From a virus (taxonomy: Duplodnaviria; Caudoviricetes): a DNA stretch of 64,000 bases. The notes beneath the pieces were generated by a model. It did no database searches. It had not been told where the DNA came from and saw nothing but the letters and a program-made list of their open reading frames with translations. Positions 9,281 to 54,246 of this stretch are shown piece by piece; position 1 is the stretch's first letter, and each line of letters begins with the position of its first letter. The stretch covers positions 16,894 to 80,893 of the IMG/VR virus record IMGVR_UViG_3300020438_000019, one strand, 5' to 3'. The translations under genes and the position numbers were made by a program.

Positions 9281-9616
9281 ATGGCTGCTATACCAATAAA
9301 TTTAATTTGCGAGAAAGGAACTGACTTTAATGCAACCTTTAATATTCAGAATGAAGCGAATACAACACCGTTAAATTTAACTGGTTATAGTGCTGTAGCG
9401 AAATTGAAAAAGAGTTTTACTTCATCTACATCAACAGACTTTACAGTTGACTTTCCAGACAGATATAACGGACAATTATCAATAGCCCTTCCTAATGCTA
9501 CATCAACTACCTTAGAAGCTCGAAGGTATGTTTATGATATTCTCTTGACTGCACCTTCGGGTACTAAGTCTAGAGTTATTGAAGGAATACTAGAAGTAAC
9601 ACCTGGAGTTTCCTGA
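9281..9616 (+). CDS. putative baseplate/tail-associated structural protein (111 aa)
   Basis: LNLTGYSAVAKLKKS...YVYDILL...RVIEG pattern common in cyanophage tail regions. Confidence 0.6.
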   Translation: MAAIPINLICEKGTDFNATFNIQNEANTTPLNLTGYSAVAKLKKSFTSSTSTDFTVDFPDRYNGQLSIALPNATSTTLEARRYVYDILLTAPSGTKSRVIEGILEVTPGVS

Positions 9617-11493: not shown

Positions 11494-14400
11494 ATGAACG
11501 AATACACCTACGATTCAAATACGATTTCTCTATATTCTACCGAAAGTTACGGCGATGTTACTGTCCTTAACGTAACGGATGATTATGGATCGATAGGTGA
11601 TGCTCCGACAAATTTAGAAGCAGAAAGTAATTTAAGTCAAGATAGTTTTGGAGAAGTCTCCATATCAGCAGATCATTACCCATTTGGAACAGCAACTATA
11701 TCTGGTGGATCACCAAGGGTAAGCTTCAGTCATGGTAATTTCGTTGCTGATGGAACTGCTCACCTCGCCTCTACCGCCTTAGAAGGCATCAGAAAGTTCT
11801 GGGTTGGTACTGGATCCCTATTTGAGATGGGTGGTGGTATGGAACGCAGCAGTGCGTTCTGGGTAGGTTCTGGTGGGATTACTGTATCTGGTACTTGTGA
11901 AGTAACAACAACATTAGATTGGAACGAATTCTTATTCGTACCATTCACTACAGAAGACTTGGGAGCTGTTGATGCAGTCCCAAGTCTTTTGGACTTTGGG
12001 GGTATACTAGATCCTAAAGATGGAGGAGAAGAATCTTGGGGATTTGTATACAATACGGATGATGTAAGAGGTGCAACATCATACCATAAGTTTAGTAATG
12101 CACCTTGGGCAGAATTTAATACTTATAGCTTTACTACAGACAGAACAGGTTCAGGTGGTCTATTTGCTGCAAGTGGTCTCTCGGAGACTAAGACCTCTAC
12201 AGAACTTGGAGATAAGACAACACTATTCAGTATAACTGGTGGAGAGATATACTCACAGACAAGTCGTGAGGTAATGTCTGGTAATGCTTCATTCGGAAGT
12301 GCTGGTGTTGAGAAGTTTGTACATGAGTTTAATGATGAGTCTGGATTTACACTAGACACAGCAGATTATGGATTAGTTTGGTATGGATTTAGTGAGACTG
12401 ATGATGATGGTAGTATTGCAGAACCTAAGTCAGGTGGTGAATATGATCATGGTGGAATTATATGGAATAACGTAGAGGCAAATACTGGTACATATGAATT
12501 GTATGGTCTCTATGATATCCAAGGAGATGGTACTTACGCTAGGTATTGGGATGGTGAAGGATCTATCCACATCACTGGACAAGACTTTACAACTAATTCA
12601 CCACATTGGACTGCATCTGGATCTTTATTCAGTGCTGGTGGTGCTGCTGAGTGTAGAACTGATACTATAGTTGGAAGTGATACAACTCTATTCACTTGGT
12701 CTGGTGCATACAGTGATCTTAAGTTCCAATATCATTGGACTGGATCTGGTTCTCTACCTGTAACTGGTGGTGTAGCAATACTAAGAACTTATGGATATGA
12801 TGATACTGCTACGATTGGATACAGTACTCAGAACTGGGGATCAATAACAGATAGTCCAGTTGATTCAGAGAATTGGGGTCTTGTTACTGAAGGATGGTTA
12901 TCAGAGAACTGGTGGTATGTCTGGCATGAGGGTGTTGCAACCTCAATGGGTGGATTTAAGGTTCGTACAGATCCTAAAGTTATTCATGATTCGACTCCAG
13001 AGAATTACTTTGATCCAACTAACCCAGGTCTTTCTGCTACCGAAGGTCACAACTTTGATACATATTCATTCACTTGGGGTCATGGGTTCGTACAAGGTGG
13101 TAATCTCTTCGGTATGGGAGGAGCTTCCGAGGCAGTTGGATATCAACCAGTTGAAGATATTGCACTGTTTACTTGGTCTGGTGCATATACTAACCTTCAA
13201 GCAACATTCAGAGAAATTGGATCTGGTTCTATATCGAGAATTGGTGGTGGAGCTGAGAGAGTCACCTTCGATTATAATGAATCATCTATTGTTCCATACT
13301 CATCAGATGATAATGGTCTGATAATAGATGCAGCAGTAGTAGTTGATCAAGGTAATGTTGCTGATATACAAGAAGGTGAAGATGATTATGGTTCTGTTCT
13401 TTATAGTTCTGTTGCATATCCTCTAGTTGGATCATATAGCATCACCAATCTACAGTTCTTTGGTGAGACTTATTCCTTCCAGAGAAGATACATTGCAGAT
13501 CCTGTATCCATATTCACTGCTCTTGGTGCTGTAGAGAGTAAGAGTACTACTGAGCTTGGTGAAGATACTTCATTAGGAGATCTTAGTGGTTCTGCTTCCC
13601 ATTATGTAATATTCAGGGAGACTGGTTCTGGTGCTATGTCCAGAATTGGTGGTGGAGTTGAGAGAGTTGTATTTGATTATAATGATAGTACAGTTGTACC
13701 ATACAGTAGTGAAGATAGTGGTCTTGTAATAGATGCTGCTACTACTGATGTTGATCTTGGTGATGTTACAGAAGTTCAGTATGGTGGTGAAGAGAATTAT
13801 GGTTTAGTTACTTACACTTCTACTGCTAATTCTGCACAGGGAACATTCACCGTCAGTCTCACAAGAGAATTGTGGACTCAGGAAGATATTGATAAGCTTA
13901 ATCCAGAATATACTACTAAACCATATGGTACATTCCCACAGGTAGGAGATGAGAAGACACAAGAAGAAGCAGGTCATCTTCGATTCATTCCTGTCTGGGG
14001 TCAAACTGGTTCTGGATCTCTATTCTCAGTTGGTGGTGCTTCTGAATCTGTAACGGTAGAACCAAATACAACTGGTATATTCCAGATGGTTGGTGGGGAT
14101 TACTATATCGGTAGTATGGTTGCAACCTTTGCCTTCCGTGAGGTTGGTTCTGGTTCTATGTCCAGAGTCGGTGGAGCTGCTGAGTCAGTAACATTCGATT
14201 ATAACGAGTCTTCTATTGTTACCTTTACTACTGAGGATGTAGGATTAGTAACAGATGCTACAAATTATCAAACTGATCATTTTGATGATGGTAGTGTAGC
14301 ACTTCCACAAGAAGCAGAGAATGATTATGGTTCAGTAATCTATGGTGAGACAGTATATCCTCTCACAGGATCTATTGATATATTCACTGCACCTGAATGG

Positions 14401-17400
14401 ATTGGTAACACATATAGATTTGTATGGAGAGCACCAGCTGGTAGTGGTGGAATACCAACTGTAGGTGGTGCTGCGGAATGTGTATCTACAACAGAACTTG
14501 GAGATTCTACAACACTATTCGATATCTACACTTCACCTGCAGGTATCGGTAACACCTATAGCTTCTGCTGGAATTACACTGGTTATGCATCAGTACCAAC
14601 TATCGGTGGTGCAGCTGAGTCTATAACATATGATTACAATGAGAATTCTATTGTTGTATTCACTACTGATGATAGTGGTCTTATAACAGATTCTGCTACT
14701 GTCTTTGACGATAGTACAGTTATAACTGCACCTCAGTCTGGTGGTGAATATGATTATGGTTGGGTATTCTGGACTAGCACAGTTCTTCCAGTTTCAGGAA
14801 CACTCCAATCTTCTGGTACTTCACCAAGTGCTACTGTATTCAGAGATCCTACACAGGGTGGATCACTATTCAGTGCTAGTGGAGCTAGTGAATGTGTTAG
14901 CACGACAGAACTTGGTGATGCTACAACACTATTTGATATCTACACTGCTCCAGCATACATTGGTAACACATATAGCTTCGTGTGGAATGCACCTCCAGGT
15001 ACAGGTGGATTATTCAGTCTTAATGGAGTTGCAGAATCTATATCATGGGCATATAACGAATCATCAATTATTCCATATGCAACAGTAGATAATGGATTGG
15101 TAGTTGATTCTGTAACTGTAGTTGATGACTATGGTTCAGTAATAGAATCTCAATATGGTGGAGAATATGATCAGGGACAGATTATATTCACATCTACTGC
15201 TACTCCATTCGGATCACTCAACTTAAGTCTAACAAGAGAACTGTGGACTCAGGCAGAGATTGATGAGTTACCTCCTACTTACGAGACAAAACCTTACGGT
15301 ACATTCCCAGTTGCAGGTCAAGAGAAGACTCAAGAAGAATCTGGTGATGTTAAGTACAAACCTATCTGGGGTCAGATTGGTGAAGGTTCTCTATATTCTG
15401 TAGGTGGTGCTGCTGAATGTATTGCTTATCAACCAACTGAGGATACAGCACTATTTGATATCTTCACTGCACCTCAATACATTGGTAACACTTACAGATA
15501 TGCATGGAGTTATGTTGGTTACTATAACTTACCTACTATTGGTGGTGCTGCTGAGTCAGTAACATTCGATTACAATGAATCTTCTATCAACGTATTCTCT
15601 GTTGATGATGAAGGTAACATTGTTGATAACGCAACAGTATTTGGTGAGTATGGCGACCTTAACATCCAACAAGGTGAAGATGATTACGGAACAGTAATTT
15701 GGACTTCTACAACATATCCTCTAACAGGAACACTCCAGACATCAGGTATTGGTTCAGAGTATGTTGTATTCAGAGATCCTACCACTGGTGGTTCTCTATT
15801 CAGTGCTGGTGGATCTGTCGAGAGTAAGACCTCTACTGAGTTTGGTGAAGATACATCACTTGGAGATCTTAGTGGTACTGGTATTCTATCCAAAACTAAG
15901 GATTGGGTTGGATCTGGATCACTATTTACTGCTCTTGGTGCTGCTGAGTCTGCAACATTCGATTACAACGAATCTTCCATCGTTACACACACAAGTGATG
16001 ACTATGGATTAATAGTAGATGCTTCTACTACCAATGTTGATCAAGGTAATGTTGCTGATATACAAGAGGGTGAAGATGATTACGGTTCAGTAATTTACAC
16101 TGAAACTGTCTATCCTACAACTGGATTAGTAACTCTTACTACTGCACCTCAGTTTATTAATAATACTTACAGCTTCTGTTGGAACTTTGTATCAGATGCT
16201 GGATCTCTATTCAGTGCTGGTGGTGCTGCTGAGTCTGCAACGGTTGATTGGGAATCAACAGGTCTCTTTGATGTCTTTACTGCATCTCAGTTTATTGGTA
16301 ACACATATAGCTTCGTATGGAATGCACCTCCAGGTACAGGTGGACTATTCTCTATTGGTGGTGCTGCTGAGTCTATTACATGGAACTATGCTCCTGGTCC
16401 AGTACTTCCATTCAGTACTACTGATTGGGGTGCAGTAGCTGATGCAACACATCCAACTAATGATGTAATCAATTACGGTGATCTTGGATTGTTCGATGAG
16501 GACACAGAAGATTACGGATTCGTAATTTACACATCTGAGACTGTTTCCAACTCTGGAACATATACCTTAAGTTTAACAAGAGCACTGTGGACTCAAGAAG
16601 AAATTGATGCACTTAACCCAGAGTATCTAACTGAGCCATATGGTACATTCCCACAGGTAGGGGATGAGAAGACTCAAGAAGAATCTGGTGATATTAAATA
16701 CGAACCATCTTACGCACATATTGGTGGCGGTACATTATTCACTGCTGGTGGTGCTGCTGAGGCTGCTGTCTATCAACCTACTGAGGATACTGTACTATTC
16801 ACTGCATTCACAGCACCTCAATTTATTGGTAACACCTATAGGTTTATTTGGAATGCACCTCCAGGCACAGGTGGATTGTTCAGTGTTGGTGGATGTGTAG
16901 AATCTAGATCTTATGTTTATAACGAATCTGGTGTTGTTACGTATGGTACTGTTGATTATGGATCAGTAACAGATCTAACACATCCAACCAATGATGCAAT
17001 CAATTATGGTGAGGTTGCACTACCTCAATCTGATGGTGAAGTAGACTACGGTTCCGTTCTCTACACCTCTACCACATATCCAACAACAGGTACTTACGTT
17101 GTTGATGGTGCTGTTACCCAGTCATTCAGTAAGGGTCTATACACTGGTGGTGGTTCTCTATTCGCTACAAGTGGTGCTGGTGAATGTGTATCTACTACTG
17201 AGTTTGGTGAGGATACATCACTTGGAGATCTTGGTGGTTCTGGTTCACAGTCACGTACTGTTGTTGAAATTGGATCTGGATCAATATTCAGAGCTGGTGG
17301 TGCTGCTGAGTGTAGGACATATGATTATGATCAGAGTGCTATCGTTGTATTCACATCAACTGATCATGGTCTAGTAGTAGACAGTGTAGTTACATCAGAT

Positions 17401-20400
17401 GATCAGGGTAGTGTTGATACTATTCAGTCTGGTGGTGAATATGATTATGGAACTGTACTTTACAGTGCTAATGCAATACCAGTAACAGGTACTTACGTTG
17501 TTGATGGTGCTGTATCTACTGCGTTTGTCTTTGGTAACTTTACTGGTTCTGGATCACTATTCACTGCTGGTGGTTCTGCTGAATCTTCAACATACTCACC
17601 TGAGAATGATACCTGTCTATATGATATCTTTACTGCTCCGCAGTTTATTGGTAACACATACAGCTTCGTATGGAATGCACCTCCAGGCACAGGTGGATTG
17701 TTTAGTGTTGGTGGATGTGTTGAAGTTAGAACATACGCTTACAATGAATCTGCTAGTCAGGCATTTAGCACTGAGGATAACGGTCTCATATCTGATGCTG
17801 TTACAACAACTGATGATCATGGTGACTTTGGATATGTTGGTGACGACACCGAGGATCATGGTCAGGTATGGTTGGGTGCTACCAATGGTGCTGCTGCAAA
17901 TGGATTCCTTACCTTCGGTGGTGAAGTATTCGAGATCTACAAACCAGCATATGCACATACTGGTGAAGGTTCATTATTTACTACTCTTGGTGCTGCAGAA
18001 TCCTTTACCACGACAGAGTTTGGAGAGGACACATCACTTGGTGATCTAAGTGGTACTCATTCTATAGTAAGAACATTCAGTGAGGTTGGAACTGGTTCTA
18101 TCTTTACTGTTGTTGGTGGTGCTGAGTCTAGAACCTACAACTATGATATCAACCTCACCGCCATAACATTCCAGGATGATAATGGTTCAATAACAGATAG
18201 TGCTACTACGATTGATGATCAAGGTACGGTTCATCCACCTCAAGACGGTGGCGAATACGATTATGGATCTATTTGGATTGGTCTTGGAAGTGAACTATGG
18301 AGATCTAGTGATACTGTATCTGCTTCTGGATTTGTTCATCTTGGTCTAATAAGTGATACCGTTGGTATTGCTAGAACATTTGGACACACTGCTTCTGGAT
18401 CACTATTTGCTACTGGTGGTGCAGCAGAGGTTGTTGTATACGATTACGAAGATACAACTCTATATGATATCTTCACTGCACCTCAATACATTGGTAACAC
18501 CTACAGCTTTAGTTGGCAGTACAGTGGATCTGGTAACATCAATTCACTTAATGGATGTGCAGAATCTAGAACATGGAATTATAGCGATACCTTACCATCT
18601 GCACTCGTTGTTGATGATGAAGGTAATGTCGTTGATGCTACAACAGTATTTGCTGATTACGGTGACCTTGGTGTTAGATGGGGTGGTGAAGAAGACTACG
18701 GTTCCAACAACACACTTGCACATCCTGGTCTCGCTGCATCTGGTACTTACACAATTAGTGGTGTTGCAAATACTCCATTCGTCTGGAGAGAAGGATGTGA
18801 AGGTGGTACGTATCTAGTTTCTGGTGAAGGAATAGAGAGACCTACAACAGCTCTAACTGGTGAAGGTACTGCATACATTTACACTGCACCTCAGTTTGTT
18901 GGTAACACATATGCATTCACTTGGGGTCATGGATTTGTACAGTCTGGATCTCTATTCAGTGCTGGTGGTGCAGCTGAGTCTACTACAACCAACCCACCAG
19001 AGGATACATTACTCTACACATTTGCTGGTACTAGAGTATCAGAACTTCGTACATATGCTGAGTCTGGATCTGGTTCCATCACTCTATCTGGTTCAGGTTC
19101 CGAACTTTACACTGGTGCATTTGAAGGATCTGGTACTGTTACTCTATCTGGTACAGGTGCAGAGAGCAAGTCGTTTGCTAACTTTGACGGATCTGGTTCA
19201 CTATTCACTGCTGGTGGAGCAGTTGAAATGGTTGCTGTTCTTGAAGGTGGAATCGGTCTTTGGACTTACAGTGGTTCTGGTATCGAGAAGCATACAGAGA
19301 GATGGATCGGTTCTGGATCTGCAACTGTATCTGGTGCTGGTCTTGAGGTATATTCCAGAGGTACGGTTACTGGATCTGGTACGGTTACATTATCTGGTAC
19401 TAAGGCAGAAAGCTTTACTCCAGCACCTGAGATTGGAACTGGTTCTATCTTTACTATTGGTGGTGCTTCTGAGTCTGCGACTGTTGATTGGGAATCTACA
19501 GGTCTCTTCAATGTTATTGGTTCCACTCATTATAACTTCTCACTCAGACATATTGGTTCTGGTTCACTATTCACTTCCAGTGGTGCTGCTGAATCCACAA
19601 CTACCAATCCTCCAGAAAATACTGCACTATTCGCAGTTGGTGGTACTAAGGCAGAAAGCTTTACTCCTGCAACTCATGTTGGATCTGGATCTATCACTCT
19701 ATCTGGTGCTGGTTCTGAGAATTACACTGGTGCATGTACTGGTTCTGGTACTGCAACTATCACTGGTGAAGCAGATCTCATCTACCGTGTTAGATACTTT
19801 GGTTCTGGTTCACTATTCACTGCTGGTGGTGCTGCTGAATCTGTTACAACCAATCCACCTGATAGTACTTCACTCCATCAAATTAGTGGTACTAGAGTTG
19901 AGAAAGCAGTATTCAGAGAAATCGGATCTGGATCTATCAGTTTCTCTGGTACTTCTCCACTTACCCGTTACATTCCACATATCACTGGTAGTGGTACTTA
20001 CACAGTTGGTGGTGCATGTACATTCAAGGTTCGTTACATCCTTGGTGGTTCTGGTAACATCTCCACATTTGGTGGTTCTGCCGAGGCAGTTGGTACTAAT
20101 CCTCCAGAGGATATTGCACTATTCGTTTGGTCTGGTATTGGCGAGAGTCAATGGTCACCTTCTTGGGTTGGTCAAGGTTCTTACTTCACATCTGGAGAAA
20201 TCCCAGAACCACTTATCACGAAACACTGGACTGCATCTGGTTCACTGTTCTCAGTTGGTGGTGCTGCAGAAAGCTTCTCTGCAAATATCGATGGTATTGG
20301 TCTATACGATATCAGTGGTGCATACTCAGATCTCAAGGCAACATACAGAGAAATTGGATCTGGATCTCTTTGGACAGCAAGTGGAGCATCAGAGTCTGTT

Positions 20401-21861
20401 GGAACCAATCCTCCAGAAAGCACAGTACTATACACATATATTGGTGCTGGTATCGAGAAGCACACCGAGAGATGGATTGGTTCTGGATCTATCAGTCTTT
20501 CAGGTGCTGGAGTTGCATTCTATACACCACACATTACTGGTTCTGGATTTGCTACTCTATCTGGATCAGCACTCGAAAGTCAGACAGACGATTGGGTTGG
20601 ATCTGGATCACTATTTACTGCTGGTGGTTCTGCAGAATCTACAACTACAAATCCTCCAGAGGATACAGTTCTCTATACTTGGACAGGTGCTGGTACAGAG
20701 AAGCATACAGAGAACTGGGTTGGTTCTGGATCTACAACATTCTCTGGTGCAGTCTCCGATGTTCAAAGAACATTTGCAGAGACAGGATCTGGATCTCTAT
20801 TTACAGCTCTCGGTGCAGCAGAATCTATCTCCACAAGCGAGGTCAGCACTGGAATCTTCACAATCAATGGAGACGGTGCAGATTCAAGAGCAAGGATATT
20901 TGTTGGATCTGGTTCTATTACCATTTCTGGTACAGCAGCAGAAGCAACAGTTGTTCCTCTTTCTGGATCTGGTACTGCTACCTTCAGTGGAGAAGCATTT
21001 ATCAGATGGATCCCAAGTTGGATTGGTTCTGGTACAGCAACAATATATGGTCAAGTCACCGATGTTCAGATTACAAAACATTGGACTGGATCTGGATCCC
21101 TATTCACAGCAGGTGGTTCCGCAGAATCGATTACCACGAATCCTCCAGAGGATACGTTACTCTACACAGTTGCAGGTAATCTTGCTGAGAGCTTTACTCG
21201 TGCTCCATACATCGGATCTGGTACTGCTACCTTCAGTGGTGAATCTAAAAACATATTCACACCTAACAATATTGGTTCTGGTTCAATATATGTTGCTGGT
21301 ACTCTGGATGAAAGACAGACAGATCATTATCATGGATCTGGTACTGCTACAGTTAGTGGTGATTCTGATGACGCACGTGCAAGAGCATTTGAAGGATCTG
21401 GATCTCTATTCACTGCATCTGGAGCTGCTGAATCTACAACTGTTGATTACGAAGATACAACTCTATATGACATCTTCGGTCATGGTGCAGAAGCCTTTGT
21501 ACGTAAGGGATATGTCGGATCTGGTTCCTTCAGTGGTATTGGTGGAACAGTTACCGATGTTAAGCTTACACATGCTGATCCAGCAGGTGATGTTGACTAC
21601 GTTGTATCTGGTGAAGTTACAGATATCAAACGTACCTTCGGATACGTTGCACCTTACGGAACACTATTTGCCTTCGGTGGAGGAGTTGAATCTGCCACTG
21701 TTGACTATGAAAATATTCTTCTTACAACAATTGGTGGTAGTGCAGATGATAAATTCGTCAGATCTGCATACATTGGAGAGGGAACAATTACTCTCAGTGG
21801 AGAGTCCCTCAATGAGCTCAGAACATTCGAGCCACCATTCATGTTTGCAACGATAATATAA
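11494..21861 (+). CDS. giant acidic G/S/T-rich repeat protein (3455 aa), probable virion fibre/scaffold
   Basis: Continuous ORF with dozens of GSGSLF(S/T)AGGAAES repeats and DDYG modules; located in late tail-gene region. Confidence 0.8.
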   Translation: MNEYTYDSNTISLYSTESYGDVTVLNVTDDYGSIGDAPTNLEAESNLSQDSFGEVSISADHYPFGTATISGGSPRVSFSHGNFVADGTAHLASTALEGIRKFWVGTGSLFEMGGGMERSSAFWVGSGGITVSGTCEVTTTLDWNEFLFVPFTTEDLGAVDAVPSLLDFGGILDPKDGGEESWGFVYNTDDVRGATSYHKFSNAPWAEFNTYSFTTDRTGSGGLFAASGLSETKTSTELGDKTTLFSITGGEIYSQTSREVMSGNASFGSAGVEKFVHEFNDESGFTLDTADYGLVWYGFSETDDDGSIAEPKSGGEYDHGGIIWNNVEANTGTYELYGLYDIQGDGTYARYWDGEGSIHITGQDFTTNSPHWTASGSLFSAGGAAECRTDTIVGSDTTLFTWSGAYSDLKFQYHWTGSGSLPVTGGVAILRTYGYDDTATIGYSTQNWGSITDSPVDSENWGLVTEGWLSENWWYVWHEGVATSMGGFKVRTDPKVIHDSTPENYFDPTNPGLSATEGHNFDTYSFTWGHGFVQGGNLFGMGGASEAVGYQPVEDIALFTWSGAYTNLQATFREIGSGSISRIGGGAERVTFDYNESSIVPYSSDDNGLIIDAAVVVDQGNVADIQEGEDDYGSVLYSSVAYPLVGSYSITNLQFFGETYSFQRRYIADPVSIFTALGAVESKSTTELGEDTSLGDLSGSASHYVIFRETGSGAMSRIGGGVERVVFDYNDSTVVPYSSEDSGLVIDAATTDVDLGDVTEVQYGGEENYGLVTYTSTANSAQGTFTVSLTRELWTQEDIDKLNPEYTTKPYGTFPQVGDEKTQEEAGHLRFIPVWGQTGSGSLFSVGGASESVTVEPNTTGIFQMVGGDYYIGSMVATFAFREVGSGSMSRVGGAAESVTFDYNESSIVTFTTEDVGLVTDATNYQTDHFDDGSVALPQEAENDYGSVIYGETVYPLTGSIDIFTAPEWIGNTYRFVWRAPAGSGGIPTVGGAAECVSTTELGDSTTLFDIYTSPAGIGNTYSFCWNYTGYASVPTIGGAAESITYDYNENSIVVFTTDDSGLITDSATVFDDSTVITAPQSGGEYDYGWVFWTSTVLPVSGTLQSSGTSPSATVFRDPTQGGSLFSASGASECVSTTELGDATTLFDIYTAPAYIGNTYSFVWNAPPGTGGLFSLNGVAESISWAYNESSIIPYATVDNGLVVDSVTVVDDYGSVIESQYGGEYDQGQIIFTSTATPFGSLNLSLTRELWTQAEIDELPPTYETKPYGTFPVAGQEKTQEESGDVKYKPIWGQIGEGSLYSVGGAAECIAYQPTEDTALFDIFTAPQYIGNTYRYAWSYVGYYNLPTIGGAAESVTFDYNESSINVFSVDDEGNIVDNATVFGEYGDLNIQQGEDDYGTVIWTSTTYPLTGTLQTSGIGSEYVVFRDPTTGGSLFSAGGSVESKTSTEFGEDTSLGDLSGTGILSKTKDWVGSGSLFTALGAAESATFDYNESSIVTHTSDDYGLIVDASTTNVDQGNVADIQEGEDDYGSVIYTETVYPTTGLVTLTTAPQFINNTYSFCWNFVSDAGSLFSAGGAAESATVDWESTGLFDVFTASQFIGNTYSFVWNAPPGTGGLFSIGGAAESITWNYAPGPVLPFSTTDWGAVADATHPTNDVINYGDLGLFDEDTEDYGFVIYTSETVSNSGTYTLSLTRALWTQEEIDALNPEYLTEPYGTFPQVGDEKTQEESGDIKYEPSYAHIGGGTLFTAGGAAEAAVYQPTEDTVLFTAFTAPQFIGNTYRFIWNAPPGTGGLFSVGGCVESRSYVYNESGVVTYGTVDYGSVTDLTHPTNDAINYGEVALPQSDGEVDYGSVLYTSTTYPTTGTYVVDGAVTQSFSKGLYTGGGSLFATSGAGECVSTTEFGEDTSLGDLGGSGSQSRTVVEIGSGSIFRAGGAAECRTYDYDQSAIVVFTSTDHGLVVDSVVTSDDQGSVDTIQSGGEYDYGTVLYSANAIPVTGTYVVDGAVSTAFVFGNFTGSGSLFTAGGSAESSTYSPENDTCLYDIFTAPQFIGNTYSFVWNAPPGTGGLFSVGGCVEVRTYAYNESASQAFSTEDNGLISDAVTTTDDHGDFGYVGDDTEDHGQVWLGATNGAAANGFLTFGGEVFEIYKPAYAHTGEGSLFTTLGAAESFTTTEFGEDTSLGDLSGTHSIVRTFSEVGTGSIFTVVGGAESRTYNYDINLTAITFQDDNGSITDSATTIDDQGTVHPPQDGGEYDYGSIWIGLGSELWRSSDTVSASGFVHLGLISDTVGIARTFGHTASGSLFATGGAAEVVVYDYEDTTLYDIFTAPQYIGNTYSFSWQYSGSGNINSLNGCAESRTWNYSDTLPSALVVDDEGNVVDATTVFADYGDLGVRWGGEEDYGSNNTLAHPGLAASGTYTISGVANTPFVWREGCEGGTYLVSGEGIERPTTALTGEGTAYIYTAPQFVGNTYAFTWGHGFVQSGSLFSAGGAAESTTTNPPEDTLLYTFAGTRVSELRTYAESGSGSITLSGSGSELYTGAFEGSGTVTLSGTGAESKSFANFDGSGSLFTAGGAVEMVAVLEGGIGLWTYSGSGIEKHTERWIGSGSATVSGAGLEVYSRGTVTGSGTVTLSGTKAESFTPAPEIGTGSIFTIGGASESATVDWESTGLFNVIGSTHYNFSLRHIGSGSLFTSSGAAESTTTNPPENTALFAVGGTKAESFTPATHVGSGSITLSGAGSENYTGACTGSGTATITGEADLIYRVRYFGSGSLFTAGGAAESVTTNPPDSTSLHQISGTRVEKAVFREIGSGSISFSGTSPLTRYIPHITGSGTYTVGGACTFKVRYILGGSGNISTFGGSAEAVGTNPPEDIALFVWSGIGESQWSPSWVGQGSYFTSGEIPEPLITKHWTASGSLFSVGGAAESFSANIDGIGLYDISGAYSDLKATYREIGSGSLWTASGASESVGTNPPESTVLYTYIGAGIEKHTERWIGSGSISLSGAGVAFYTPHITGSGFATLSGSALESQTDDWVGSGSLFTAGGSAESTTTNPPEDTVLYTWTGAGTEKHTENWVGSGSTTFSGAVSDVQRTFAETGSGSLFTALGAAESISTSEVSTGIFTINGDGADSRARIFVGSGSITISGTAAEATVVPLSGSGTATFSGEAFIRWIPSWIGSGTATIYGQVTDVQITKHWTGSGSLFTAGGSAESITTNPPEDTLLYTVAGNLAESFTRAPYIGSGTATFSGESKNIFTPNNIGSGSIYVAGTLDERQTDHYHGSGTATVSGDSDDARARAFEGSGSLFTASGAAESTTVDYEDTTLYDIFGHGAEAFVRKGYVGSGSFSGIGGTVTDVKLTHADPAGDVDYVVSGEVTDIKRTFGYVAPYGTLFAFGGGVESATVDYENILLTTIGGSADDKFVRSAYIGEGTITLSGESLNELRTFEPPFMFATII
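13342..17718 (+). repeat. dispersed near-identical DNA repeats inside the giant gene
   Basis: gttgatcaaggtaatgttgctgatatacaaga(a/g)ggtgaagatgatta at 13342 and 16036; tggaatgcacctccagg(t/c)acaggtgga at ~14983, 16318, 16849, 17671; ccatatggtacattcccacaggtagg at 13921 and 16636; acaggtacttacgttgttgatggtgctgt at 17086 and 17485. Confidence 0.9.
18860..21856 (+). other. nested stop-free +1 reading frame (998 codons, L/V-rich) within the giant gene
   Basis: ORF track; about 30 +1-frame stops by hand count in the preceding 2.85 kb versus zero here. Confidence refers to the frame being functional. Confidence 0.55.
20127..21179 (+). other. nested stop-free -1 (+2) reading frame (350 codons, W/C/R-rich); all three forward frames open
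   Basis: ORF track; systematic synonymous switching (gca gaa, ggc gag, tcc gat, acg aaa) that avoids T|AA, T|AG and T|GA junctions. Confidence 0.6.
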
Positions 21862-21877
21862 CTGAAGATTTTGATGG

Positions 21878-21885
21878 TATAAATA
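21878..21885 (+). promoter_or_regulatory. T4-type late promoter
   Basis: Exact TATAAATA upstream of the 21913 ORF. Confidence 0.75.
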
Positions 21886-21912
21886 AAAGAAGCATAAATT
21901 CGAGGGAAAACT

Positions 21913-22122
21913 ATGACTAAGCAGGTACAGTTGAGACGGGGTACTACAGTACAACAGTCAACATTTACTGGAGCTCTTGGAGAATTGACCGTAGATACTA
22001 CGAAAATGACCCTTGTTCTCCATGACGGAGCAACTCAAGGAGGCATAGAATTTGCTCGAAGAGACGATGTTACTGCAGAAGTAACAACAAGTATGGGCAT
22101 GATGGCCGCCCTTGGTTGGTAA
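21913..22122 (+). CDS. small protein consisting of an Mtd_N/hyaluronidase-N-like tail-fibre N-terminal domain (69 aa)
   Basis: VQLRRGTT...FTGALGELTVDT...LHDG.T.GG motif; GAGG RBS. Confidence 0.75.
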   Translation: MTKQVQLRRGTTVQQSTFTGALGELTVDTTKMTLVLHDGATQGGIEFARRDDVTAEVTTSMGMMAALGW

Positions 22123-22211
22123 ACCAAAACCCATCAACATTAGATTTCATATAAAATGATCTGCACTGAATTGATAACCACTCATAAACAATAAAAGGGG
22201 ACTAAAAGAAA

Positions 22212-25200
22212 ATGGCAAAAACCTTGCTCTTTGATGCTGTGTTTGACGCATCAGCAAGAACAGTAACTTTGCATGGTAATAAGCACCAGCGAAGAATGTT
22301 GTTGATAACTAACACAACGGATAACCAAATTATCTATAATTTTGCTGACCCTACCAGAACTGGTACGTTTAGCTACGATACAACAACTGATCATACAACG
22401 ATCACATTGCTGTATGATACGACATCAATGTCTGATTCAGACACTCTTCAAATTCTTGAAGAGGATGATGCTGTTAAGATGGAACCGTCTGAGACATTTG
22501 TTGACGCTGTATCGAAGTTCCGAGTATCAAATCCAGAAAACTTGGTTGATACCGACTTTGAGTATGGACCTCAGGCTTCTAAATGGGAAACTATTCAGAC
22601 GATCAATAACATTCCATCGTTCTTTGCATCTACTTCAGATACTACTATCCCCTTTATCTCGAAAGTAGAAGCTGTTCAGGGTAACGAGCTTATTACAGTT
22701 TCCACGAGTTATGATCACAACCTTACAAGTGGTGTTCCTATCACAGTTACAGGTCTTGCATCGGTTACTGCAGAAGGTACATATATCATTCAGGCTGTAC
22801 CTACAAGTACATCTTTCACATATAAAGCAAGATCAGCTCAACCAACAACTAGAGAATTGCAAGGTGTATATACATCTATTATTCCAGGTAAGTTCTTCCA
22901 AGGTTCTCAGATCAGTCTAGACCAATCAATTGGTATTGTGTCTGACCTTTACAACTATCAGGTTACTGTTGCTAGTATCATGAAACTTGTAGTTACAGCT
23001 GCACCTGGTCCTGAATGGGTAATTGGTACTGTGATTTCAGGTGTTGGTGGTGGTGTTGGTAAGATTCTTCGTATAGAAGGAGTTAATCTATACGTTTCTA
23101 CTATCGGTGGTGCATTCGTAGACGGAGAAGTTATTACTGGTACTGGTATTGATACCATAGGTGGAACAACAACACTTACTCTAGAAGCTAGTGGTGGTGT
23201 TAACGCAGATGGTAATAAGTATCTTATTGATACTACAGGTGATGGTTCTGGAGAACTTTATCCAGCTATCTCGATGACAAGAAAAGGTATCTATACTTTT
23301 GACCAGTCTGATACTAGTAATACTTCACACAATCTAAGATGGTCTACAACTGCTGATGGTACTCACGGTGGTGGTTCTGCTTATACAACATATGTTTATG
23401 AGCATGGAACTCCTGGACAAGCTGGTGCATACACAAGAATCTACGTTAACAACGATACTCCTGCGAACCTCTATTACTACTGTGTAAACCACGCTAATAT
23501 GGCTGGTAACGCAGGTGCATCTATATCAAATGTTGATGTTACTGATGTATCATACAACCCAATTACAGGTGATATGGTATTGACCATTGGTTCACATACT
23601 TTACTAACTGGTCAAAACATTAAGCTTAAGACAGAATCTATTAAACTGACTTGTGATTATCACGGAGACGGAAACACAACCGTTAAGTCATATCCTCGTG
23701 CTTCTGGTGCTTCTACCTCTAATGGTGCTGACTATGTTTACAACCAAGCAATTCCTATTATTGCTAAGACTGCAACAACAATTACAGTTAATGTAAACGG
23801 TGGTCAAGGTCCTGTTACAGATACTTCTACTCACGTACATAGTGGTGGAACTGCATCTGGTGCTGTTATTGCTGGAGTTAATGCTGGAATAGCAATGCTT
23901 GCTCCTACAACAAACTCTAAGGTTTATCTAACCACAGTTTCTGAGCACGGATTTGCTGATAACACAAACTTCTACTTCATTAACACTGTATCTCCTAAGA
24001 TACTTGAAGTTCAGGATCCTACTTCTACTGCTCCTGATGGTCAAGCATACGTTGATACTGTACTGCAAGCTACAGTTAATAGAGATACTGATATGACTCA
24101 GTATGATCCATATGATTATGAATCAACATATACTCTAGCATTTGATGAGTCACAAGTAGATTACGGTAATAATACGATCTCATTTGATAGTAACCATGAT
24201 CTCAAAGATGGATACTCTGTACTTTACTATCCGCCCCCAGGAGCACGTCCAATCGGTGATTGCCGTAGGATGCAGGTATACTGGATTGAAGCAGTAGACG
24301 CTACTACGATAGCTTTCCACCATTCTCAGAGAAGAAACTATGGTCGTGTTAATTTAAGTAATACTTATACTGGAACATGGGATGGTAACTGGTCATATGG
24401 TAAGCATAAGATTGGACTATGTTATACATGCTACAGAGAATATAAAGGTTGGCATGAATGGACTACAAGAATCTATACTTACTACTGGCAGTGGGGTTCA
24501 ACCTATTCAGGACATGACTTCGCACAAGTTAATGGTAGTTATGGATTAGGTCAGCAAAACTGGGAGTTGACAGCGTTCTTCTCTTGTTCAAGGCCAGAGC
24601 GTGGTGGATATGGAAACCAGCATTATTACTATTGCTGGCCATGGAGACACGCATTTGGAACTTATTGGAAAACTTACGGATATCATCTACAGAGTCTACC
24701 AAGGAGTTCAAGTGAGCGTTGGCAAGGTAGCTACGACTTTATAACAGATGACGGAAACCGTGGTGTTAACACTAATAACTATCATGACTACAGTTATGGT
24801 TATACTATTGGTGGACTAGGTGGTCACGGTGGTAGTAAGCACTATTGGACATCAAGCTTCTATGCTGAAGGATGGTCTGGTGGTAACTACATGAACATAC
24901 GTGGTAATGAGACATATTGGTGGTATTATCAGGGATGGTATTCTCAAACTATTAACCAGTACTTTAGAGATATCTCTACTGATGGTGGACATACTATGTT
25001 CTGGATTCTTCTTAAGAGGAATACTTCAACCAATGATAGTTTCTACTTCCCTAACCACGGATTTAGTAATAACCAATCCGTTACAATGTCATTCCCATCT
25101 GGCGGTGAAGTTTATTACTACTATGACCAATATGGTAATAGAACTAATACTTCTAGTGGTACATGGTACATTGATAGAATCGATAATAACAGATTCAGAA

Positions 25201-28200
25201 TCAAATCAAGTACTGGTGCTGAGCCAATGAGATTGGCTGGTGTAAATGGACAAATTAGATTTACTGCTATTCTTGATAACCCATACAAGAACACCATTTA
25301 TATTGCAACTAACCAGTTCTCTAACAACGAAGTTGTTAAGTATACAGGTACTGGTGGAGCTATTGGTAACCTAACAAGTGGTAACTCTTATTACATTAAG
25401 ACTATTACTGGAGATAGATTCCAATTAGCAAGTAGTGTTAATGGTACTCCGATTTCCTTTGGTAATGGTAATACTGGTGCTGGTATTCAAGAGTTTGAGA
25501 ACACAACTGCTGACTTCGGTGTTGTTGATGGTTCTTACACTACTGTTAAGGCAATCTCCGAGACAGAACTTGAAGTTTCAATTCCATTCAAAGTTCCACC
25601 TTCTGTAAAACAGTTTGATGGTTCTTCTAATGACGTTGATACTTCAGGAGACTGGATCAATATTAACAACCACTACTATGCTACTGGTACTAGAGTTATC
25701 TACGATAACAATGGTAACAGCACTATCGGTGGTTTGAGTCACAATAAGGACTACTATGTGGTTGTTATTGATAACGCTCACTTCAAGCTTACTGAGTCAC
25801 TAGCAGATGCACTTGCTAGTACTAACATTGTAGACATCACAGGAACCTCTTCTGGATTCCACCAGTTGATCTCTGCTGCACTATCTGGTGAAGTTGGAGG
25901 AACAGGTACAGTTGCTGTTCAAAGTGGAATAAGAAGAGTCACAGGTACTAATGCTGCCTTCCAGAGATTCTTCAAGATTGGTGATACAATCAAGATTGTT
26001 AACACAACAGGTGGTACACCTGGTGTTATTGAAGGACATACAATTACTGCTATTACTGATGATGACAACTTGATCGTTGATACACCTTGGACATTCAGTC
26101 AGTCTGGTACTAACTACATGATTCCTTCTTACATCTATGTAAGACCTGATGGATTCTTCTTACACAGACCGTTTGACGGTGGTATGGAAATCGGTACTTC
26201 TAAGTCTCCGAACTCCAGAATCTCCAGACAGACTCGTAAGTACTTCCGTTACCAGTCAGGTAAAGGTATTCAGACCTCACTTGCGATTAACTTCACACCA
26301 CAGATTCCAATTATCAACTTAACATTTGCGACATCTGGTTCACAACAGATTCAATCATGTTCAGGTACAATTGATACGAATGTTCTAACAGTTGCTGATA
26401 GTTCAGTACTTGTTGTTAACATGCCCGTAACTGGTACTGGTGTTGCAACTGATAGTTTTGGTAACCCAGTTAAAATTGCTGAGATTGTTGATGCTACAAC
26501 AGTTCAACTCTCTGCACTACTAACTGCAACAATCAGTTCTGAGAATCTTACATTCGAGCCAGTTATAACTGCAGAATGTACAACAACTAAACCACACCAG
26601 TTGAGTGCTGGACTTAACATTAAGGTTATTGATTGTGATACTCCAGAGTTTAACACTGGTGCTAAGGCAACTAACGTATTAGCAGTTAATGATGAATTTA
26701 GATTCACATACCTATTACAAGAAACTCCTTCACAGTCTGTTGGTGCTGGATTCCCAACACTAGCTGTTCTATCTTGGAACGACTGTGCTGTACGTGCTGG
26801 TATGTTTGATGATCAGAACGGATTCTTCTATGAGATGGATGGTCAAACGATCAACTGTTGCCGTAGAAGCTCAGTACAACAGCTTCCAGGAACTGTTAGT
26901 GTAACCAAAGGTTCACAGATCATTACTGGTACTGATACTAAGTTTACATCACAGTTACTTCCGAAGGACATGATTGTTGTTCGTGGTATGAGTTATAAGG
27001 TCGTTAAGGTCGCTAACAATACTCAGATCACAGTTCAACCATCTTACCGTGGTACAACTAACGAAGATGTTATCATGACGAAGACAATCGATACTAAGGT
27101 TGCGAAAGCAAACTGGAATATCGACACTGGAGATGGACTTGGTAAGTCTGCTTACATCTTGGATGTTTCTAAGATCCAGATGTGCTACATGGATTACTCT
27201 TGGTATGGTGCTGGTAAGATCCGCTTTGGATTTAAAGATCAGCATGGACATGTTAAGTACTTCCATGAGTTCAAGCACAACAACAAACTAACTGAATCTT
27301 ACTTCCGTTCAGGTAACCTACCTGCTCGTTACGAGATTGAGAATGGTGATGAACCTACCTACGTAGGAACTCTGTTCCACTGGGGTACATCGGTTATCAT
27401 GGATGGTACATTCCAGGATGACGAAGCGTATCTATTCACTGCGTCTGGTATTACTCACAAGTATACCAACAGTTCTGCTAACGCTGCTCAGACAAATGGA
27501 AACTCTGCTATTGTTGAGGAAAGAGTCAACTGGTACTATAGAAGATACTTTATCAGAATCCCATTTGATAATGGTTCTTATGGATCAGTTCTAACGATTA
27601 ACACTAACATCTATGAAGCTTCTGTTTCTAACGGATACTTCCAAGATGGTAGGGTGATCGATACTAGATCATATCAGTCAGGATCTACCTATTACGTATA
27701 CATCAAGTATGTCGAAGGTACATCTGACTACTTCCCAAGAAACTACTACTCCGCAATCAACTCAACCCTAGGTAACCCTGCTGTTCCTAGCAGTACTACC
27801 TTCTCAGTTGGTGCTCCAGCTGGTAACGAGAACTTGATTCCTGTTGATATGCCTCTAATTTCAATTAGATTGGCTCCATCAGTTGACTCCTCGATTACTG
27901 GAGCATTAGGAGATAGAGAGATTATCAACCGAATGCAACTTAAGCTTGACTCGATTGGTATCTTGACTACACACGAGACAGAGATTAGTCTAAGACTGAA
28001 CCCTTCTCTAAGTACGGATACATTCGAGAATGTTGAGAACCCATCACTATGTCAATTGGTTAGACACAGTTCATCTGATACCCTTGCCTCTGGTTCAACG
28101 ATTCTATCGTTCAGAGCATCTGGTTCTGGTGCTGGTCAAACTGCATCAACTAACTTCGACCTATCGAAGATTAGTGCGTTGGGTAACTCGATCTTAGGTG

Positions 28201-28331
28201 GTGACGGTATCTATCCAAATGGACCTGACCTTCTAACAGTGGTAGGAAACATAGTTGACTCTTCTGGAGTTAATCTATCCAACCCTTACTCAATATCTGC
28301 TAGAATTACATGGCAGGAATCACAAGCATAA
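22212..28331 (+). CDS. large tail fibre-like structural protein (2039 aa)
   Basis: KFRVSNPENLVDTDFEYG, RQTRKYFRYQSGKG and DYSWYGAG motifs of cyanophage fibre-like proteins; repeated beta modules. Confidence 0.75.
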   Translation: MAKTLLFDAVFDASARTVTLHGNKHQRRMLLITNTTDNQIIYNFADPTRTGTFSYDTTTDHTTITLLYDTTSMSDSDTLQILEEDDAVKMEPSETFVDAVSKFRVSNPENLVDTDFEYGPQASKWETIQTINNIPSFFASTSDTTIPFISKVEAVQGNELITVSTSYDHNLTSGVPITVTGLASVTAEGTYIIQAVPTSTSFTYKARSAQPTTRELQGVYTSIIPGKFFQGSQISLDQSIGIVSDLYNYQVTVASIMKLVVTAAPGPEWVIGTVISGVGGGVGKILRIEGVNLYVSTIGGAFVDGEVITGTGIDTIGGTTTLTLEASGGVNADGNKYLIDTTGDGSGELYPAISMTRKGIYTFDQSDTSNTSHNLRWSTTADGTHGGGSAYTTYVYEHGTPGQAGAYTRIYVNNDTPANLYYYCVNHANMAGNAGASISNVDVTDVSYNPITGDMVLTIGSHTLLTGQNIKLKTESIKLTCDYHGDGNTTVKSYPRASGASTSNGADYVYNQAIPIIAKTATTITVNVNGGQGPVTDTSTHVHSGGTASGAVIAGVNAGIAMLAPTTNSKVYLTTVSEHGFADNTNFYFINTVSPKILEVQDPTSTAPDGQAYVDTVLQATVNRDTDMTQYDPYDYESTYTLAFDESQVDYGNNTISFDSNHDLKDGYSVLYYPPPGARPIGDCRRMQVYWIEAVDATTIAFHHSQRRNYGRVNLSNTYTGTWDGNWSYGKHKIGLCYTCYREYKGWHEWTTRIYTYYWQWGSTYSGHDFAQVNGSYGLGQQNWELTAFFSCSRPERGGYGNQHYYYCWPWRHAFGTYWKTYGYHLQSLPRSSSERWQGSYDFITDDGNRGVNTNNYHDYSYGYTIGGLGGHGGSKHYWTSSFYAEGWSGGNYMNIRGNETYWWYYQGWYSQTINQYFRDISTDGGHTMFWILLKRNTSTNDSFYFPNHGFSNNQSVTMSFPSGGEVYYYYDQYGNRTNTSSGTWYIDRIDNNRFRIKSSTGAEPMRLAGVNGQIRFTAILDNPYKNTIYIATNQFSNNEVVKYTGTGGAIGNLTSGNSYYIKTITGDRFQLASSVNGTPISFGNGNTGAGIQEFENTTADFGVVDGSYTTVKAISETELEVSIPFKVPPSVKQFDGSSNDVDTSGDWININNHYYATGTRVIYDNNGNSTIGGLSHNKDYYVVVIDNAHFKLTESLADALASTNIVDITGTSSGFHQLISAALSGEVGGTGTVAVQSGIRRVTGTNAAFQRFFKIGDTIKIVNTTGGTPGVIEGHTITAITDDDNLIVDTPWTFSQSGTNYMIPSYIYVRPDGFFLHRPFDGGMEIGTSKSPNSRISRQTRKYFRYQSGKGIQTSLAINFTPQIPIINLTFATSGSQQIQSCSGTIDTNVLTVADSSVLVVNMPVTGTGVATDSFGNPVKIAEIVDATTVQLSALLTATISSENLTFEPVITAECTTTKPHQLSAGLNIKVIDCDTPEFNTGAKATNVLAVNDEFRFTYLLQETPSQSVGAGFPTLAVLSWNDCAVRAGMFDDQNGFFYEMDGQTINCCRRSSVQQLPGTVSVTKGSQIITGTDTKFTSQLLPKDMIVVRGMSYKVVKVANNTQITVQPSYRGTTNEDVIMTKTIDTKVAKANWNIDTGDGLGKSAYILDVSKIQMCYMDYSWYGAGKIRFGFKDQHGHVKYFHEFKHNNKLTESYFRSGNLPARYEIENGDEPTYVGTLFHWGTSVIMDGTFQDDEAYLFTASGITHKYTNSSANAAQTNGNSAIVEERVNWYYRRYFIRIPFDNGSYGSVLTINTNIYEASVSNGYFQDGRVIDTRSYQSGSTYYVYIKYVEGTSDYFPRNYYSAINSTLGNPAVPSSTTFSVGAPAGNENLIPVDMPLISIRLAPSVDSSITGALGDREIINRMQLKLDSIGILTTHETEISLRLNPSLSTDTFENVENPSLCQLVRHSSSDTLASGSTILSFRASGSGAGQTASTNFDLSKISALGNSILGGDGIYPNGPDLLTVVGNIVDSSGVNLSNPYSISARITWQESQA

Positions 28332-53977: not shown

Positions 53978-54246
53978 ACATGTTTATCCTCACCCTAGCT
54001 GGTCAACCACAACAAGTCTTCTCTGTAACTGGAGATGATATGGAACAGGTTGTGCCTATGTTTGAGGCAGAGGAAGATGCTGAGAGATATGTTTTTCTTG
54101 TTGATGAGATAAATGATCCAATGACTCCTGAGCTTGATGTTGAGGAAGTTGACGGAGATGCTATAATGAAAGCTTGTGACCATCAAGAAACAAATTATGT
54201 CGTCTTTTCTAAAAATGATTTGATTATTCCACCACGTATTATATGA
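53974..54246 (+). CDS. conserved hypothetical protein between gp47 and gp46
   Basis: MFEAEEDAERY...DLIIPP; coupled to both neighbours. Confidence 0.7.
   Translation: MNMFILTLAGQPQQVFSVTGDDMEQVVPMFEAEEDAERYVFLVDEINDPMTPELDVEEVDGDAIMKACDHQETNYVVFSKNDLIIPPRII

Follow-up and report, generated by a model that had tools for sequence, protein, structure and literature searches.

The closest described counterpart of the pattern reported here is the ambush hypothesis of hidden stop codons, reportedly advanced by Seligmann and Pollock, which likewise invokes selection on synonymous sites through the fate of out-of-frame ribosomes. The case considered here is a giant repeat-protein gene in a stretch of 64,000 nucleotides (nt; hereafter the window) from a tailed phage (IMG/VR record IMGVR_UViG_3300020438_000019, positions 16,894 to 80,893), and its sign is reversed: off-frame stops, which under the ambush hypothesis should be neutral or enriched, making shifted ribosomes stop early, are fully purged over 3 kilobases (kb) of this gene. 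As far as the accessible parts of the hidden-stop literature go, including tests of the ambush hypothesis (PMC3700767, PMC5909447, PMC2996987), its concern is with the excess or neutrality of such stops. In a full-text literature search, no account of a phage gene depleted of off-frame stops came to light.

Long open alternative frames are otherwise familiar from several settings. Same-strand overprinted genes of phages, such as phiX174 D/E and the lysis genes of RNA phages, resemble the open zone of the giant gene in presenting a long second open frame on the same strand inside a structural gene; the zone differs in that it lacks a conserved start and a conserved or recognizable alternative protein, its synonymous rate is not lowered and the third frame is also partly open. 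Programmed ribosomal frameshifting in phage tail genes, of the lambda G/GT type, would similarly provide a trans-frame C-terminus from a virion-module gene, but the zone has no slippery heptamer, defined shift site or known stimulatory RNA, and it spans 1000 codons as opposed to a short extension. Non-stop frames in repetitive or GC-rich genes, reportedly noted by Ohno in 1984 for the nylonase gene and by Yomo et al. in 1992, are likewise long stop-free alternative frames in internally repetitive coding sequence; those cases involve high G+C or repeat units not divisible by 3, whereas the giant gene lies in a region of 41-45% G+C, its repeat offsets are multiples of 3 and its three frames encode unrelated sequences. 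Finally, trans-translation by transfer-messenger RNA (tmRNA) and SmpB shares the logic proposed below, in that incomplete products are marked for disposal instead of being released. However, tmRNA acts at the 3' ends of messenger RNAs (mRNAs), whereas the open frames of the window are closed by ordinary stops, and a direct link between the two is a proposal.

The source contig (80.9 kb; estimated completeness 43%) belongs to a T4-like cyanophage of the Kyanoviridae type, with a major capsid protein 91% identical to that of Synechococcus phage S-CAM1. The giant protein is made of diverged repeat modules in which Gly, Ser, Thr and Ala are abundant. The gene and the features within it are as follows:

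11494..21861, + strand: giant repeat-protein gene of the tail/fibre module, 3455 amino acids (aa), from the open reading frame (ORF) list and its translation
18857..21853, + strand: +1-frame stop-free zone of 999 codons, bounded by stops at 18854 and 21854, with GTG at 18860 as the earliest possible start
18815..18856, + strand: 5' boundary of the +1 zone, with +1 stops at 18815, 18833 and 18854 at the frame-0 pairs L-V, I-E and L-T
20100..21176, + strand: core of 359 codons, bounded by +2 stops at 20097 and 21177, with the +2 frame open as well
21854..21856, + strand: +1 stop closing the zone, 5 nt before the main stop at 21859-21861

The central observation is that, across the C-terminal domain of about 1000 codons, purifying selection on synonymous codon choice has eliminated all codon pairs that would create a stop in the +1 frame. 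The +2 frame is likewise purged, in the core in the window clade and over most of the domain in the homologues from S-CAM1 and S-CAM3. It is openness alone that is preserved, with no alternative-frame sequence. The first 2454 codons of the gene (11495-18854) carry 91 +1 stops, after which there is none until 21854; this run of 1000 codons stop to stop compares with a next longest +1 gap of 188 codons. The original prediction, made by a model from the sequence alone, had singled out the 998 open codons from 18860 to 21856, in agreement with the ORF list (GTG start, 998 aa), and its estimate of about 30 +1 stops in 16000-18855 is matched by a count of 32. Across the gene, 340 stops fall in the +2 frame, never more than 48 codons apart save for one gap of 360 (20097 to 21177), and the 1077 nt of the core are devoid of TAA, TAG and TGA in all three sense frames. 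On the whole 80.9-kb contig the +1 zone and the +2 core are the only alternative-frame open runs of at least 200 codons within longer ORFs, and the reverse strand has ordinary stop numbers.

These voids differ sharply from what the encoded protein would predict. With synonymous codons permuted locally within the zone (2000 replicates), 15.9 +/- 2.4 +1 stops (minimum 9) are expected in the last 999-1000 codons, as against 0 observed, the terminal stop at 21854 aside. The corresponding expectations are 39.6 +/- 4.9 from N-terminal codon usage, 33.9 from N-terminal per-dipeptide stop rates and 32-34 +/- 4.3 (minimum 21 in 500) from a context model, trained on 12848-15302 codons of the other window genes, in which the draw of each codon is conditioned on its amino acid and on the two bases that open the following codon. 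In the core, the shuffle predicts 20.8 +/- 3.1 +2 stops and the context model about 30 of them together with about 10 +1 stops; neither frame has any. Thus, the shuffling that the original prediction had called for shows that openness is not what the amino-acid pairs would produce by themselves, and where an ambush-type gene would hold at least the shuffle-expected number of off-frame stops, this one holds 0 versus 15.9-39.6 in the +1 frame and 0 versus 20.8-30 in the +2 frame of the core.

The purging is visible as codon choice that depends on the following codon. In the last 1000 codons, A-ending Leu, Ile and Val (L/I/V) codons account for 0 of 95 before purines and 33 of 67 before pyrimidines (Fisher p=5e-16), precisely as had been claimed for xTA codons from inspection; before a purine they go from 89 of 266 in the N-terminal part to 1 of 96 in the C-terminal part, the one being the terminal stop. 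In the core, T-ending codons make up 2% of 63 before codons starting with AA, AG or GA, versus 49% of 297 in safe contexts. Of the 64 trinucleotides, TAA, TAG and TGA show the strongest depletion, in the zone of the window as well as in S-CAM1 and S-CAM3; GCC is also absent from the 1.08-kb core (0 versus 0.7 expected), TGG shows no depletion, and the reverse strand holds 14-99 stops in each frame. An apparent depletion of off-frame ATG was rejected: the raw ratio of 0.3-0.5, which stems from the low Met content of the zone, vanishes against synonymous shuffles (23 versus 19.9; 6 versus 5.7). More generally, the window phage and its relatives show codon-boundary biases, with off-frame TTT and AAA strongly avoided and TGG favored (e.g., in ORFs 567-8780, 22212-28331 and 54243-55958). 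In the N-terminal part of the giant gene, +1 stops number 90 against 113.8 expected from shuffles, a deficit of 21%.

The depletion is confined to this gene. Among the 23 ORFs of the window only the giant gene deviates, with z-scores (z) of -6.6 and -4.1 in the C-terminal part and -5.1 (+1 frame) in the N-terminal part, and several ordinary genes display a slight excess of +2 stops over synonymous shuffles (z +2.5 to +3.8). Likewise, gene 099 stands alone as an extreme outlier among ORFs of at least 500 codons in the complete genome of S-CAM1 (whole gene, +1: 15 versus 40.5, z -6.1; +2: 56 versus 166.8, z -14.3), with ORFs of 3700 and 3032 codons having normal off-frame stop counts. Six large neighboring control genes in the homologue phages match their shuffles (+1: 49 versus 45.1, 51 versus 51.0, 56 versus 53.5), and S-CRM01 has no stop-depleted gene. 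Since the depletion is gene-specific and tracks a conserved domain to the end of the gene, a cost at the level of the protein appears likelier than one at the level of the mRNA. As separate observations on S-CAM1, its VrlC/DUF4815-like gene (76913-85042) shows a mild +2 deficit (274 versus 337.6, z -5.7) with a normal +1 count, far weaker than that of 099, and the adjoining ORF at 74969-76888 has a z of -3.8.

A scan of IMG/VR returned 12 loci, of which seven cover the zone (L001-L006 fully, L008 for 771 codons to its contig edge) at 92-61% protein identity to the window; L009 and L010 (952 and 1460 nt) were left out as too short. In all seven the +1 frame is open, with runs of 999, 897, 999, 898, 985, 998 and 769 codons, L002 and L004 each having one extra +1 stop about 100 codons into the zone, and the +2 void lies at the same place; L007 is cut off by a contig edge, and its final 400 codons are free of +1 stops. 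In an ancestry-conditioned test, wherein only codons differing from the window were resampled (300 replicates), 12.1 +1 stops were expected in L005 versus 3 seen and 10.8 in L008 versus 1, with none of the 300 replicates as low. At the 5' boundary, the first and last of the three stops are kept in all six aligned loci (L001-L006) and the middle one in four, which is compatible with shared ancestry alone; the 3' boundary stop of the +2 core is 679-682 nt before the main stop in the window, L005 and L008. The giant protein varies from 3172 to 3458 aa among orthologues, with a varying number of repeat modules. L011 and L012 were considered as paralogues without a stop-free zone and discarded, being N-terminal and middle fragments of orthologues. 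On another note, the 15 codons at 20647-20691 (frame-0 TNPPEDTVLYTWTGA) show 0 synonymous differences in 91 comparisons among 8 orthologues versus 14.1 expected, an invariance that may be due to an RNA/DNA element or to gene conversion among modules.

Beyond this clade, a blastn search with the zone against phage records found no match, and relationships become apparent at the protein level. Three segments of the giant protein match the PHROG family phrog_11522, of unknown function (E 3.2e-18, 1.3e-40 and 2e-51), and no Pfam family was matched. A tblastn search with its C-terminal 1001 aa recovered 16 phage records at 25-29% identity. Homologues include S-CAM1 gene 099 (2130 aa), S-CAM3 094 (2558 aa), S-SSM7 110 (1529 aa), Sf-FS3 93 (1505 aa) and S-SCSM2R 111 (1369 aa). 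About 1000 C-terminal residues are collinear across the family, the N-terminal part being variable in length; the stop-free zone coincides with this domain, in keeping with the earlier remark that its onset falls at a switch in repeat type. Off-frame stops in the homologues, as observed and as expected from shuffles, are:

S-CAM1 099, last 1000 codons: +1, 0 observed and 13.0 expected; +2, 3 observed and 67.4 expected
S-CAM3 094, last 1000 codons: +1, 1 observed and 21.4 expected; +2, 10 observed and 67.6 expected
S-SSM7 110, whole gene: +1, 14 observed and 35.7 expected; +2, 70 observed and 131 expected
Sf-FS3 93, whole gene: +1, 12 observed and 29.9 expected; +2, 104 observed and 150 expected
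S-SCSM2R 111, whole gene: +1, 16 observed and 28.3 expected; +2, 115 observed and 143 expected

The decisive evidence of conservation is this depletion in genes at 25-29% identity, which have diverged to saturation from the window at the DNA level. Together with the openness in the seven orthologous loci and the resampling test, it bears out the original proposal that selection keeps the frame open. Context-specific codon choice, examined in the last 1000 codons of seven genes (those of the window, L005 and the five named phages), recurs too: A-ending L/I/V codons before purines versus pyrimidines amount to 0/124 versus 19/89 in S-CAM1, 1/90 versus 41/97 in S-CAM3, 0/132 versus 18/66 in S-SSM7, 1/130 versus 15/70 in Sf-FS3 and 12/117 versus 20/66 in S-SCSM2R, the homologue with the weakest depletion. 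The +1 runs reach 1000, 1081 and 1258 codons in genes of 3455, 2130 and 1529 aa, the last of these (S-SSM7) ending 5 nt before the stop, and in five of the eight genes examined the longest +1 run ends -5 to +34 nt from the main stop. A distinct pattern is found in the N-terminal half of S-CAM1 099 (record positions 95151-98066), where alternative-frame runs of 223-254 codons lie end to end with end points about 738-765 nt apart, matching an internal repeat offset of 738 nt; here, one off-frame stop appears to have been inherited per super-repeat.

The open frames lack the marks of a hidden gene. An overlapping gene should reduce synonymous divergence across the overlap; between the window and L005, differences at fourfold sites amount to 0.25-0.33 in the C-terminal bins as against 0.20-0.45 in the remainder, with similar results for closer orthologues. 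Hence, of the check on orthologues that had been proposed, conservation of +1 openness was found and a reduction of synonymous divergence was not. There is also no conserved start, intact ORF throughout (L002 and L004 are interrupted) or alternative-frame relative: the +1 and +2 translations match no family in Pfam or PHROG, the +1 translation has no tblastn match in phage records, and the alternative frames resemble no frame of the distant homologues and no frame-0 sequence at all (best E 0.15). The suggested nested, very hydrophobic protein is thus not supported as one with a sequence of its own. A frameshifted alternative C-terminus fares no better: as first noted by eye, there is no slippery site in the zone (0 frame-0 heptamers of the form X_XXY_YYZ, with 1 in the whole gene, at 11610), homopolymer runs of at least 5 number one in the zone and two in the whole 10.4-kb gene, and Rfam gives no match at E<=0.1 in 18000-22400.

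Nor does the history of the repeats account for the open frames. Internal repeats of the giant gene are 60-82% identical in DNA, which rules out recent repeat amplification as the source of the zone. Their offsets are multiples of 3 in 108 of 111 high-scoring segment pairs in the window and in 12/12, 25/25 and 4/6 in other genes, the exceptions being 3 of the 111 in the window gene and 2 of 6 short gapped pairs in S-SSM7; where orthologues align out of phase, the blocks do not exceed about 34 nt and match poorly. These offsets and blocks and the lack of cross-frame similarity dispose of out-of-register repeats and of homology swapped between frames. With just two short arrays picked up by Tandem Repeats Finder, the gene has neither the hypermutable homopolymer or short tandem tract nor the associated length variants of a phase-variation locus. 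In contigs of four public runs (Logan), which are fragmented by the repeats and from which rare frameshift variants are dropped, indels occur as nearby pairs or sum to 3 nt, being compensated over a few bases. The sequence is also present in one RNA library, which is not proof of transcription.

Several of the phages with a giant gene also encode a tmRNA. Using RF01851 above the Rfam cut-off together with ARAGORN (RF00023 gave sub-threshold matches only), we found a cyano-type permuted tmRNA (109-143 bits, ARAGORN tag ending in VAA) in S-CAM1, S-CAM3, S-SSM7 and Sf-FS3, and the single-cell virus AG-345-P14 combines a tmRNA with the C-terminal end of a giant-type gene at its contig edge. In S-SCSM2R, no tmRNA was found, and Sf-CH3, with a capsid protein 90% identical to that of the window, has neither tmRNA nor giant gene. 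A tmRNA is thus present in five of six lineages with the giant gene; the records of the window clade are 17-70% complete, and the comparison rests on the other lineages. By blastn, tmRNA-like sequence occurs in 20 of about 457 cyanophage records with a cyanomyovirus-type capsid gene, and these 20 include 15 of the 16 records in which the giant gene occurs. The association is genuine, if not strict: a tmRNA as either a sufficient or a necessary partner is excluded by S-CRM01 and S-CBWM1, with a tmRNA only, and by S-SCSM2R, with the gene only. Permuted two-piece tmRNA genes lie at:

L018, 1579-1893: tmRNA gene of S-CAM1
L019, 1460-1811: tmRNA gene of S-SSM7
L020, 1571-1885: tmRNA gene of S-CAM3

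Further tmRNA genes are those of Sf-FS3, S-CRM01, S-CBWM1 and AG-345-P14. In public records the phage tmRNA genes lie under annotations as hypothetical proteins, beside tRNA-Arg and tRNA-Val, and the predicted tags include ANTSDSAANNIVAFSRSTVAA. In PMC3037559, supplements being outside the search, the term tmRNA occurs in the reference list only.

How might such a pattern be maintained? Only translation termination reads exactly the three depleted triplets, and only off-frame ribosomes read them in the +1 or +2 register; hence, the fate of off-frame ribosomes is the likely target of the selection, with translation as its presumed agent. We tentatively favor, with somewhat less than even confidence, a form of error handling in which ribosomes that have shifted frame find no place to terminate cleanly within the conserved C-terminal domain. 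Briefly, a ribosome slipping or starting off-frame in the domain would not be released by a release factor and would thereby not deliver a cleanly truncated, folded and assembly-competent fragment; such fragments of the C-terminal domain might be harmful. Instead, it would run to the end of the gene and add a long aberrant tail, rich in Leu, Val, Ile and Phe because about half of the +1 codons have T in the second position. Such a hydrophobic tail should bar the product from assembly and leave it prone to proteolysis or aggregation. For this particular protein, truncation would then be worse than extension, thereby reversing the usual 'ambush' logic. More speculatively, the phage tmRNA may serve the same end for chains stranded on broken messages of 4 to 10 kb. 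Of the three options offered in the original prediction, its quality-control tail is accordingly the most plausible, albeit as an interpretation. A stronger version, which we regard as rather doubtful, would have the stop-free frames and the phage tmRNA as the two halves of one quality-control system for a single giant virion protein, in which ribosomes in any frame would be barred from release within the C-terminal assembly domain, such that each faulty chain would end in either a hydrophobic nonsense tail or a tmRNA degradation tag.

Several points weigh against this error-handling proposal. There are no slippery heptamers and almost no homopolymer runs in the zone, and a useful rate of shifting is presumed. 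The +1 frame of the window ends in an ordinary stop, which implies that the shifted products would not be tagged by tmRNA. In the window clade the +2 frame is protected only in the 1.08-kb core, with about 57 +2 stops both observed and expected outside it, a restriction that the model does not explain; nor is it obvious why a garbled full-length chain should be less harmful than a truncated one. On the side of the tmRNA, S-CRM01 and S-CBWM1 carry one but no phrog_11522 gene, and the link is phylogenetically confounded, resting as it does on about six related lineages. Lastly, general codon-boundary biases do exist, though they explain only the +1 deficit of about 20% in the N-terminal part.

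The main alternatives that retain translation as the agent place the benefit elsewhere. The alternative frames could be translated on purpose, by internal initiation or by frame switching that needs no canonical signal, for trans-frame or nested products whose composition or length matters rather than their sequence, namely a +1 polypeptide of about 1000 aa at most, rich in Leu and Val, and a +2 polypeptide rich in aromatic residues. Frames fully open over 1000 codons to the gene end, a sharp and conserved 5' boundary with a GTG 4 nt after the last +1 stop, a +1 composition set automatically by frame-0 codon usage and apparently strong selection tolerating no stop would all suit such products; nevertheless, we deem them unlikely given the lack of a slippery site or Rfam element, the interruption of L002 and L004 about 100 codons in, the undiminished synonymous divergence, the absence of relatives or a family for the products, the implausibility of three overlapping products over 1.08 kb and the residual stops that interrupt the +2 frame of S-CAM1 and S-CAM3 at differing positions. 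It is similarly improbable, in our estimation, that the message is what is protected, in the sense that off-frame termination would trigger cleavage or decay of a long mRNA, via collisions, A-site cleavage or RNase exposure, and strand the upstream ribosomes, with tmRNA rescuing the remaining stalls. This view has an experimental precedent in eukaryotes: according to the accessible part of a preprint, hidden stops in fungi and human cells terminate +1-shifted ribosomes and destabilize mRNAs, and their synonymous removal stabilizes them (bioRxiv 10.64898/2026.01.14.699446). It would also fit the position of the zone at the 3' end, where the loss is greatest, and its co-occurrence with tmRNA. 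Yet other giant genes (2737 and 2039 codons in the window; 3700, 3032 and 2709 in S-CAM1) have no comparable depletion, the sole sign elsewhere being the mild +2 deficit of the VrlC-like gene with its z of -5.7. Furthermore, to our knowledge bacteria have no nonsense-mediated decay, and trailing in-frame ribosomes cover a well-translated message, both of which count against protection of the message.

A further alternative is that the repeat array evolves by out-of-register recombination or by indels and that open frames confer mutation tolerance or evolvability, letting frame-shifted repeat segments survive or supply new sequence. This would sit well with a long, diverged repeat array of variable module number (3172-3458 aa) and with an amino-acid divergence that is high relative to that at fourfold sites. 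It strikes us as very improbable and is largely refuted by the repeat, block and indel data: offsets in multiples of 3, out-of-phase blocks of no more than about 34 nt, no frame-0 similarity (best E 0.15) and indels that are compensated in the contigs of the four public runs, even if such contigs drop rare variants. Moreover, second-order selection of this kind would be weak for a DNA phage. We give still less credence to a non-translational reader of UAA, UAG and UGA on the sense RNA or the non-template DNA, such as a nuclease or binding protein. The depletion is indeed strand-specific and, in the core, frame-independent, but the depleted set is exactly the three stop codons with the related UGG enriched, the +1 and +2 extents differ, as is not expected of a frame-blind reader, and we know of no factor with such a specificity. 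Least credible of all is the absence of any selection on the frames, with openness arising incidentally from amino-acid composition or codon-pair bias, or handed down from an ancestral repeat unit that was free of stops. The general codon-boundary biases and the N-terminal +1 deficit speak for it, as does the manner in which repeat ancestry shapes off-frame stops in the N-terminal half of S-CAM1 099, where runs end about every 740 nt. However, all four nulls fail by at least 6 standard deviations and the effect is dependent on codon context; it recurs independently at 25-29% protein identity with saturated DNA, repeats are 65-76% identical, and substitution at the differing codons would by itself have been expected to bring 11-12 stops into L005 and L008. 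At the level tested, this explanation is refuted.

The foregoing amounts to strong, long-lasting and gene-specific selection against off-frame stops in at least six cyanomyovirus lineages, the opposite of the usual view of such stops as neutral or mildly useful. It makes the rate and cost of frame loss by ribosomes in vivo testable in a cultivable system, namely S-CAM1 or S-SSM7 on marine Synechococcus. The comparison of off-frame stops with a synonymous shuffle is a simple statistic that can be applied to all phage genomes in the search for similar constraint, and the 998-codon open frame, which is not a gene, serves as a warning for annotation. Were the link to tmRNA to hold, it would provide a function for the rare phage-encoded tmRNAs. 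If the two were indeed halves of one system, this would be the first gene whose unused frames are a selected functional feature (an 'anti-ambush' design), and late cyanophage translation, with host codon usage being very different, would have to shift frame often enough to shape 3 kb of sequence.

As regards the setting of the gene, a common order is seen in the window and in the annotated regions of S-CAM1, S-CAM3, S-SSM7, Sf-FS3 and S-SCSM2R: a giant DUF4815/VrlC-like gene, small genes, a structural protein of about 230 aa, a phrog_10467 protein of about 340 aa and the giant repeat-protein gene. By family profiles, the ORFs of this order in the window are:

567-8780: DUF4815/VrlC-like giant gene
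9616-10320: structural protein of about 230 aa
10395-11420: phrog_10467 protein of about 340 aa
11494-21861: giant repeat-protein gene

A profile search of PDB sequences with the giant protein found no related solved structure, and an AlphaFold2 model of the 404 residues encoded by 20218-21429, built with 8 sequences, is all-beta with low confidence (mean predicted local distance difference test score 45.3). Between the window gene (11494-21861) and L001-L006, amino-acid divergence is about equal to fourfold-site divergence (8% versus 9% for L001), a ratio suggestive of relaxed or diversifying selection on the giant protein, as in host-range proteins. The C-terminal ends in the family (window 21829-21858) are conserved and hydrophobic (...FATII, ...TYGWII, ...VYVTII, ...TYVVII, ...TFTIIV) and may represent an assembly or docking signal. 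A simple scan for a terminator 3' of the giant gene, with a non-stop design in mind, found none. At 21878-21885, 17 nt 3' of the stop of the giant gene, lies TATAAATA, which we take to be the consensus of T4-type late promoters. It is followed from about 21915 by a small ORF starting MTK..., an arrangement kept in all homologous loci, with the ORF being annotated in other phages as a tail protein, as hoc-like or as an Mtd N-terminal domain.

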